Under the pieces are notes generated by a model. The model saw only the letters and a program-made list of their open reading frames with translations. It was not told the DNA's origin and made no database searches. This document shows, piece after piece, positions 1 to 1,391 of a stretch of 64,000 nt of DNA (the first letter of the stretch is position 1; the number at the start of each line of letters is the position of its first letter). Both the position numbers and the translations under genes were made by a program. Source of the stretch: Escherichia phage HMD-6. The stretch lies in the sequence record PQ505080.1, one strand, 5' to 3'.

Positions 1-1391
1 ATGAGCGTGGTAACAGGTGCACTACAGAAGAGTGGATCAAGAAGGTACTAAAAAGATATCCTGAAAATGCTGAAAAGTATGATTATAGTCATGTAGTGTA
101 CAAGACCTCTGGGGATAAGGTTGAGATTCATTGCAAAATGTGCGGAAGAATAATGCACCAGAAACCTAGCAAGCATTTATCAGGGCAAGGGTGCAAGACT
201 TGCGCAGCAAGATCTGTTTCTGCGAAAAAAGTTCCTAGCTTCCAAGAAATAGTTGAGAGATGTGTAGAAGTACATGGTAGTGATTATGAGTATTTTGAAG
301 ACTCTTATGTGAACACCTCAACACCTATGATGATGCGCCACAAAGAGTGTGGGAATATCTTCATGCAGCGTCCTGAATTCCATTACGGGAAAGGACAAGG
401 ATGCCCTCGTTGCTGTCGAAATCAGTCTAATGGTGAGAAAGAGATCCTGACGTTCATTAAAAGTGTGTATAGCGGCGATATTGAAGAGAACGTGCGTATT
501 CTGGACAACTTTAAGGATCCTTCCAAGAAAAAGATGGAGCTGGACATTTATGTTCCGGAGCTTAAGCTTGCTGTGGAATATAATGGTGCCTACTGGCACT
601 CTGTAGACAGTAAGGGGAAATGGTACCACATCCTGAAAAGGAAGGCTTGTGAAAAACAAGGTATTCGCATGTTGTCTATCTGGGATTGTGATTGGCAGGA
701 TGCTCGGAAAAGACCTATCATTGAGAGATATCTCAAGAATGCTTTAGGGGTCAAAGACGAGAAGACCGTCTATGCCAGAAAGTGCACAGTTAAAGATGTG
801 GACAATAAAACTTACCGTGACTTTATGGAGAAAAACCACATTCAAGGGTATGCCCCAGCCAAGGAAGTGAAGAAGGGTCTGTTTACATCTGACGGCGAGC
901 TGGTAGCTTGTATGAGTTTTAAAATACTGAAAAACAGAGATCAAAAGGTAACCCCTTTCGTTATGTGGGACATGGTAAGGTATGCAACAAGCTGTAACGT
1001 TCCCGGTGGGCGTAGTAAGCTGTTTAAGCATATCCGAGAAGAGTTTAAGATGGATCATGTTCAATCCTTCCTTGACAGAGATTACTTCACAGGCGTGTCC
1101 TATAAGGAGGAGGATGGCTGGATTTTGGCAGAGGACGATCAGGTGTCTACGAGCTTCTGGAGCTACCGTGGTGGCAGAATGCCAAGGCAGGCGTGGTGGA
1201 AGTCAAACATCCCAGAGACACTGAAGCATCTCGGGTTGGACGAGTCCTTATACGATCCTGAGAAAACACAAGAGTGGAATGCCAAAAATGCAGGCTGCTA
1301 TATCCTTGAAAACAGTGGCAACTCTCGCTTTGAATGGCACAGTGATGAAGGTAAAAATGATCCTGCATACTTGGATTGGTTGAAAGGTTAA
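1..1391 (+). CDS. homing endonuclease-like nuclease (5' end probably outside window)
   Basis: ORF track gives 96..1391 (GTG), but the frame is open to the window edge and the first repeat unit begins before nt 96. Two N-terminal ~55-aa Zn-ribbon-like repeats (C-x2-C ... G-x-G-C-x2-C), a central Vsr/PD-(D/E)XK-like signature 'LDIYVPELKLAVEYNGAYWHS', and a C-terminal 'YARKCTVKDV...NHIQG' module. Free-standing between tail genes. Confidence 0.5.
   Translation, partial: ERGNRCTTEEWIKKVLKRYPENAEKYDYSHVVYKTSGDKVEIHCKMCGRIMHQKPSKHLSGQGCKTCAARSVSAKKVPSFQEIVERCVEVHGSDYEYFEDSYVNTSTPMMMRHKECGNIFMQRPEFHYGKGQGCPRCCRNQSNGEKEILTFIKSVYSGDIEENVRILDNFKDPSKKKMELDIYVPELKLAVEYNGAYWHSVDSKGKWYHILKRKACEKQGIRMLSIWDCDWQDARKRPIIERYLKNALGVKDEKTVYARKCTVKDVDNKTYRDFMEKNHIQGYAPAKEVKKGLFTSDGELVACMSFKILKNRDQKVTPFVMWDMVRYATSCNVPGGRSKLFKHIREEFKMDHVQSFLDRDYFTGVSYKEEDGWILAEDDQVSTSFWSYRGGRMPRQAWWKSNIPETLKHLGLDESLYDPEKTQEWNAKNAGCYILENSGNSRFEWHSDEGKNDPAYLDWLKG

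Follow-up and report, generated by a model that had tools for sequence, protein, structure and literature searches.

The 64,000-nucleotide stretch of DNA from Escherichia phage HMD-6 (PQ505080.1), referred to here as the window, begins with the 3' part of what is probably a free-standing homing endonuclease gene. Sequence comparisons place the gene, with a probability of roughly 80%, in the Hef-like branch of the Vsr-like (EDxHD) family, in the spacer between the tail-tube terminator and the tail assembly chaperone promoter of an rV5-like coliphage. The C-terminal module of the predicted enzyme is, as judged from profile comparison and a structure model, a GNAT domain closest to Mom of phage Mu. 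The kinship with Mom is the new element of this analysis, and it holds for the whole protein family rather than for the copy in the window specifically. The gene and its surroundings include the following features:

3..1391, + strand: putative homing endonuclease gene, 5'-truncated by the window edge; 99.6% identity to residues 80-540 of JEP1_014 and 99% to P0001
1368..1391, + strand: last eight codons of the gene (YLDWLKG*), the right boundary of an indel polymorphism; a 21/24-identical copy is present in 'empty' spacers
1393..1421, + strand: sigma-70-type chaperone promoter, TTGACA-17-TAAAAT, 11/12 plus TG (extended -10); annotated in rV5 as P51
1465..1938, + strand: tail assembly chaperone gene; Phage_TAC_15 (Pfam) 1e-23, PHROG 3840

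No stop codon interrupts frame 3 of the plus strand between the window's first base and a TAA codon at positions 1389-1391. The fragment corresponds to the 3' 85% of the gene and encodes the C-terminal 462 residues of a protein of about 540 residues. Approximately 79 codons, which include the first zinc ribbon, lie upstream of the window edge, as do the promoter and the ribosome-binding site. The homologue from phage JEP1, JEP1_014, has 540 residues, and its ATG is positioned 235 nucleotides upstream of window position 1. A metagenomic contig (L006) encodes a 541-residue version of the protein, P0001, with 99% identity to the window fragment. The HMM search that the sequence-only reading had named as a check matched the 462-residue product to PHROG 559 ('HNH endonuclease', E=3e-93, profile positions 192-603 of 607) and to PHROG 3339 ('homing endonuclease', E=2.5e-67). 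The matches to the PHROG profiles show that the gene is real and that its 5' end lies beyond the window. The start at GTG 96 given by the open-reading-frame lister is an artefact of the truncation and was rejected; the real ATG lies outside the window. The region upstream of the ATG in JEP1, which is outside the window, contains a promoter-like TTGACA-17-TATCCT and a AAAGGAGG Shine-Dalgarno sequence. No Rfam intron was detected in window positions 1-3000 or in the JEP1 locus. The gene has its own expression signals and is borne by neither an intron nor an intein. A search for paralogues of the gene throughout the 64-kb window found none.

The source of the window is an rV5-like coliphage (Vequintavirus). 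A search with the first 6 kb gives 124 matching phage records, nearly all of which are Vequintavirus, and the best match is JEP1 with 96.8% identity. The gene order in relatives is sheath, tube, endonuclease gene, chaperone and tape measure, and the insert follows the tail-tube terminator and precedes the promoter of the chaperone gene. Therefore, the gene is located inside the tail module and not, as the sequence-only reading had proposed, at its head. The same reading had correctly placed the gene between a structural gene and the chaperone gene, the structural gene being that of the tail tube in the relatives, and had correctly predicted a separate chaperone promoter after the gene, which was found at 1393-1421. 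The promoter starts one nucleotide after the stop codon of the endonuclease gene, and the insertion leaves it intact. In FV3, rV5 and most relatives, the gap between the tube and chaperone genes is 162 nucleotides long and consists of a terminator hairpin, a short spacer and the chaperone promoter.

Downstream of the insert, the chaperone gene is followed by the tape-measure gene. The chaperone gene, in frame 1, contains a T_TTT_TTC slippery heptamer at 1833-1839, and an open stretch of frame 3 spans 1824-2198. A -1 frameshift at the heptamer would give a longer chaperone fusion, comparable to the lambda G/GT pair. The annotation of rV5 lists an open reading frame overlapping the chaperone separately, as gp050.

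Presence or absence of the gene in related genomes had been named beforehand as a test. With the empty site of FV3 as the query, an intact, contiguous 162-nucleotide tube-spacer-chaperone site of the same length was found in 112 of 122 records, so the gene is not conserved in all relatives. The occupied site has the same junctions in each of its four carriers among the related phage records, JEP1, A147, A135 and PDX, to which a few metagenomic contigs can be added. In agreement with this, all except four of the 124 records that match the 6-kb query start matching at about position 1370. The sporadic occurrence at one site, the lack of an intron in the vicinity and a domain homologous to that of I-Bth0305I together support the earlier reading of the gene as a free-standing, intronless homing endonuclease gene.

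At the left junction, the homology between occupied and empty sites stops after GGTTTTGACA. At the right junction, it restarts at (C)TTG(G/A)ATTG(G/C)TTGAAAGGTTAA, followed directly by ATTGACA. A target-site duplication was considered and rejected, as both of the TTGACA hexamers that flank the insert are already present in the empty site. Every empty site examined contains the 21/24-nucleotide counterpart of the last eight codons of the gene. A relative of the protein encoded at another locus, P0038, also ends in ...DWLKG..., which indicates that this stretch is intrinsic to the gene and is not part of the target. Since the empty sites keep the 3' end of the gene, the insert-free allele looks deletion-derived, and it may be a derivative of the occupied allele and not a naive target. 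A variant scar, …CACACCATTTTTGGATTGCTTGAAAGGTTAA, occurs in the insert-free phage ECP26 (L014), which has a 163-nucleotide spacer; it is nearer to the JEP1-type 3' end than the common scar is. The scar of ECP26 is a hint that occupied and empty alleles have exchanged sequence by gene conversion, or that a deletion occurred a second time.

The shape of the junctions can also be read in terms of loss alone: the gene would be ancestral in rV5-like phages and would have been deleted once, after which the deletion allele spread, and the present carriers would retain a gene that does not home. The single junction shared by all the insert-free genomes examined fits such a history, as does the retained copy of the last eight codons with the DWLKG stretch intrinsic to the protein. 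Occupancy of the site is old, since a less closely related phage of 134 kb (L007) has an orthologue with 68% identity at its tube/chaperone site. An additional 108-residue open reading frame, for which there was no Pfam match, is located between the tube and endonuclease genes of the distant phage (L007 3578-3904).

The distribution and divergence of the alleles are difficult to reconcile with a single loss. Downstream of the gene, at positions 1370-6000, the window is 98.7% identical to the insert-free SYGMH1 and about 96.2% identical to the insert-bearing JEP1. The gene itself is about 98.8% identical between the window and JEP1. The presence of the gene thus does not track the phage backbone, and carriers are not each other's closest backbone relatives. 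Two alleles occupy the one site: the type found in JEP1, the window and L006 has three zinc ribbons, and the type found in A147, A135 and PDX has four and is 611-627 residues long. The dS between the alleles is 1.07-1.8, as opposed to 0.139 in the adjacent chaperone gene, which is an 8-13-fold difference. For alleles to differ by a dS above 1 when the backbones around them have a dS of about 0.14, the gene must have been exchanged between genomes. The C-terminal GNAT domain is the most strongly constrained part of the protein, with a dN/dS between the alleles of 0.03, compared with 0.06 for the nuclease domain. Purifying selection is strong in all three parts of the intact reading frame. The intact frame, low dN/dS and high dS indicate that the gene is functional and that its history is older than, and separate from, that of the flanks. 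A non-homing remnant of an ancestral gene is therefore considered unlikely, and a homing endonuclease gene is the preferred reading.

The downstream flank is, at informative sites, a mosaic of JEP1-like and FV3-like patches. A clean co-conversion gradient declining with distance was sought in this flank, and the mosaic was found in place of a monotonic tract. Polymorphisms fixed between carriers and non-carriers, which could represent immunity changes, were sought in the tube and chaperone coding flanks, and none was found outside the junction. Both results weigh against homing, as do the retained 3' end in the empty sites and, in the nuclease domain, a histidine aligned with the last residue of the EDxHD motif.

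Members of the protein family occur in other genomic positions as well. A relative with 53% identity is encoded between a fragmented, group-I-intron-bearing nrdD and nrdG in a 141-kb metagenomic phage (L008), and the nrdD-nrdG neighbourhood is a classic location of homing endonucleases. The nrdD gene of this phage is called as five pieces (L008 589-3877), a group I intron lies in at least one of the gaps (Rfam RF00028, 72 bits, 2306-2549), and a small DUF723/MUG113 gene is located further downstream, beside nrdG. Further family members are found at other loci of rV5-like genomes (three tblastn places per record in JEP1 and A147; also WalterGehring, nom and Mangalyan), with about 80% nucleotide identity over 140 nucleotides in the zinc-ribbon region. 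The similarity of these sequences suggests that DNA-binding modules may be exchanged between paralogues of rV5-like genomes. The carriers A147 (MG065644) and A135 (MG065690), together with 16 more records named 'Campylobacter phage' (host C. jejuni, 'UNVERIFIED'), are classified as Vequintavirus and have 92-97% identity to rV5-like phages of E. coli. The C. jejuni host label of records of the A147 and A135 type is, on this sequence identity, probably wrong.

The endonuclease-like multi-domain architecture proposed by the sequence-only reading is real, and zinc ribbons, a Vsr-like domain and the 'ARKC...NHIQG' module were all found. The domains and their candidate functional residues, on the plus strand, are:

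15..212, + strand: zinc ribbon, second of three in the full protein, CapR/DUF723/DUF4379 type, putatively DNA-binding; beta-hairpin plus helix in the AlphaFold2 model
234..413, + strand: zinc ribbon, third of three; C/H ligands invariant in the family
429..743, + strand: Vsr-like (EDxHD-type) nuclease domain
435-437, 543-545, 576-578, 582-584, 597-599, 627-629 and 636-638, + strand: candidate catalytic residues E, D, E, N, H, H and K, respectively
768..1388, + strand: Mom-like GNAT-fold domain ('ARKC...NHIQG' module), 207 residues
837-839, 978-980, 1014-1016, 1074-1076 and 1101-1103, + strand: equivalents of Mom residues H58, R111, S124, D149 and Y159, respectively

The identities of the domains were derived from family profiles and a structure model, and direct scans with the single protein were nearly uninformative. 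Scanned alone, the window protein had no match in NCBIfam, sub-threshold matches to MTES_1575 and DUF4379 only in Pfam, a weak 'HEase' match only in PADLOC, and a single hit, 3r3p with E=0.33, in a single-sequence search of the PDB. The AlphaFold2 model of the 541-residue protein was calculated from an alignment of 89 sequences and has a mean pLDDT of 90.8.

The tandem zinc ribbons are present in the window as two complete copies. Among 80 homologues, Pfam matches were obtained to DUF4379 in 76, to DUF723 in 70 and to CapR in 25. The zinc finger of CapR has been demonstrated to bind DNA, namely the -35 element (PMC8096241), and repeated zinc-ribbon domains are the modular DNA-binding parts of T5orf172 homing endonucleases of phages (PMC10448857). 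The empty spacer of FV3 (L002 4975-5030; window 1368-1398) reads TTGACA-CACGTTC-TTGAAT-TGC-TTGAAA-GGTTAAA-TTGACA and has four TTGA(A/C)(A/T) motifs within about 45 nucleotides, with the insertion point between two -35-like hexamers. Because zinc fingers of the CapR type are reported to bind the -35 element, the motifs of the spacer could be recognition elements of the enzyme.

The nuclease domain has a Vsr-like catalytic fold and is homologous to I-Bth0305I and Vsr, in line with the Vsr/PD-(D/E)XK-like core that had been suggested from the sequence. Its D, E, H and K residues are invariant in the family. In the profile alignment, which is the sole basis of the residue equivalences, E224, D260, N273 and H278 of the full-length protein correspond to E170, D196, N208 and H213 of I-Bth0305I and vary little or not at all; where I-Bth0305I has D222, the aligned residue is a conserved histidine (H288), which is followed by the invariant K291. 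The 'HNH endonuclease' label of PHROG 559 was rejected, as there is no HNH Pfam match in the protein or in the 80 homologues, and the fold is Vsr-like. I-Bth0305I is the prototype of EDxHD (Vsr-like) homing endonucleases (PDB 3R3P), and phage enzymes of the Hef type belong to the same family (Taylor et al. 2011, PMC3239194). The assignment of the window gene to the Hef-like branch is based on the annotations of its homologues and on this placement of Hef-type enzymes as Vsr-like.

Zinc ribbons of the CapR type, the binding of CapR to a -35 element (PMC8096241) and the position of the insertion site between two TTGACA hexamers could also belong to a domesticated CapR-like regulator, which would bind DNA at the adjacent promoters and contain an inactive nuclease domain. 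However, the family shows no variation at the putative catalytic residues of the nuclease, dN/dS is low, and the tail operon works without the gene in most relatives. Such a regulator is thus highly improbable, and the interpretation as a homing endonuclease is retained.

The 'ARKC...NHIQG' module exists as predicted, at 768-1388, and R, H and Q within it do not vary. In a Foldseek search of the PDB with the whole model, Mom of phage Mu (8BV8) is the top match, with E=1.2e-5 and a TM score of 0.60 over all of Mom. With HHalign, a profile of 260 C-terminal domains matches one of about 115 Mom proteins at a probability of 94.7% and E=6.3e-8. The HMM of the C-terminal domain reaches only 10.5 bits against the single Mu Mom sequence, and the relationship to Mom is convincing only in the profile-profile and structural comparisons. 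The Pfam Mom model (PF25680) matches 21 of the 80 homologues at E<0.01, mostly under the gathering score, and it has no direct match in the window copy. A bridging, stand-alone relative of 251 residues, P0137, scores 30.6 with the Mom model, above the gathering score of 27.1, and matches the window domain at 1e-17. In the literature that could be searched, no paper ties Mom to these nucleases.

[quoted passage not shown] 2026, PMC13219725); the residue numbering used here is that of the 241-residue Mom (PMC7261163; PMC13219725). In an alignment of 261 sequences, covering 260 C-terminal domains, the equivalents of H58 and R111 are kept in all of the domains, those of Y159 in 258, of D149 in 219 and of S124 in 203, that is, in 78-100%. 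Mom Y59 is replaced by I, L or V, and W48 is not conserved. The position of R151 is a weakly conserved R in the family consensus, and the window copy reads D-R-D. The family of the domain comprises 8,082 clusters at 50% identity (E<=1e-3). The domain is nearly always C-terminal in proteins of 430-700 residues and is sometimes stand-alone or duplicated. Phage genes that encode it are annotated as 'homing endonuclease', 'Hef-like homing endonuclease' or 'hef', and a few annotations from Acinetobacter phages read 'putative nuclease/acetyltransferase protein'.

The Mom-like domain is conserved and, judging from its residues, seems capable of catalysis, and a simple homing model does not account for it. 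The best guess is that the domain most likely grips DNA, perhaps engaging a flipped adenine in a base-flipping type of recognition. It is conceivable, if doubtful, that the Hef-like C-terminal domain is a catalytically competent enzyme of the Mom type. The family would then be nucleases fused to an adenine modifier dependent on aminoacyl-tRNA or acyl-CoA, with Mu Mom as a stand-alone offshoot of a far larger group associated with nucleases. An improbable reading is a dual-function enzyme that benefits the phage and is not purely selfish, in which the nuclease would be combined with a Mom-like adenine aminoacyl- or acyltransferase, or would serve as a weapon of marker exclusion between phages. 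The lowest dN/dS of the protein in this domain, the retention of the equivalents of H58, R111, S124, D149 and Y159, two of which are essential in Mom, and the very large size of the domain family would be expected of such an enzyme. By contrast, the gene is present in only about 3% of close relatives and is therefore dispensable. Furthermore, Y59 and W48 of Mom are not conserved, the window copy lacks an arginine at the position aligned with the essential R151, and the domain could serve for DNA binding alone. No modified base is known in rV5-like phages, which also counts against a phage-serving modification.

The preferred interpretation as a homing endonuclease implies the following mechanism. 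During mixed infection, the tandem zinc ribbons would bind a long target, located within or close to the tube-chaperone spacer of an insert-free genome, and the Vsr-like domain would cut the DNA of this genome. The break would be repaired by recombination with the carrier genome, and the gene and short flanking stretches would be copied across in the process. The insert stops one nucleotide ahead of the -35 box of the chaperone promoter, and the expression of the tail operon is thus undisturbed. The location between a terminator and a promoter may in this manner minimise the cost of the insertion to the phage.

As a homing endonuclease, the gene is one more example of selfish DNA shaping the mosaicism of rV5-like phages, which are used for therapy and biocontrol, and it points to the tube/chaperone spacer as a hot spot of recombination. 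The 'ARKC...NHIQG' module is the hallmark of a phage nuclease family that is very large and poorly annotated. The tRNA-dependent DNA-modifying chemistry of Mom was established only in 2023-2026. If the Mom-like domain is active, thousands of 'homing endonuclease' genes would have a second, unexplored DNA-modifying activity. In a bifunctional enzyme, modification could mark or protect target sites, or could aid base-flipping recognition. If the domain is inactive, it is a new case in which an enzyme fold has been adopted for DNA recognition.

The predicted protein shares parts with several known systems. Mom of phage Mu is a stand-alone GNAT-fold protein of approximately 240 residues that functions as a tRNA(Gly)-dependent adenine-N6 glycyltransferase (PDB 8BV8; PMC13219725, PMC7261163). 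By contrast, the window domain is fused behind a nuclease, the equivalents of Y59 and W48 are not conserved and that of R151 is shifted or absent, and most members of its family score just under the Pfam Mom threshold. The T5orf172/CapR homing endonucleases of ICP1 have the same CxxC/H...CxxC zinc-ribbon modules in variable copy number (PMC8096241, PMC10448857); however, their T5orf172 nuclease is GIY-YIG-like and not Vsr-like, and they have no Mom-like domain. Vsr (PDB 1CW0/1VSR) is a single-domain repair enzyme that nicks mismatches, has an internal zinc site and intercalating tryptophans, and is not mobile. I-Bth0305I is encoded in an intron, has 266 residues with N-terminal NUMOD/HTH DNA-binding motifs, and contains no GNAT domain. 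Unlike I-Bth0305I, the window protein has tandem zinc ribbons, a 207-residue Mom-like domain after the nuclease, and a histidine aligned with the final aspartate of the catalytic motif.

Hef of phage U5, on which Sandegren and colleagues reportedly published in 2005, is among the closest known systems. In tblastn searches, the whole window protein, or its C-terminal domain alone, matches genes annotated as 'Hef-like' or 'hef' in Jersey, demigod, CPX, RaK2, KARL-1 and PTm5. Experimental cleavage by Hef of phage U5 is cited by Edgell 2010 (PMC2988022), and phage LIMEstone1 encodes the Hef-like proteins F-LimIII, F-LimVII, F-LimVIII and F-LimX, one of them beside the tail-tube gene (PMC3296691). 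The window gene and the Hef and Hef-like genes of T4-like, ViI-like, Jersey-like and Campylobacter phages are all free-standing and intergenic, and adjoin conserved essential genes. The window gene differs from Hef in its insertion site, the tube/chaperone spacer, and in the group of phages that carry it, Vequintavirus.
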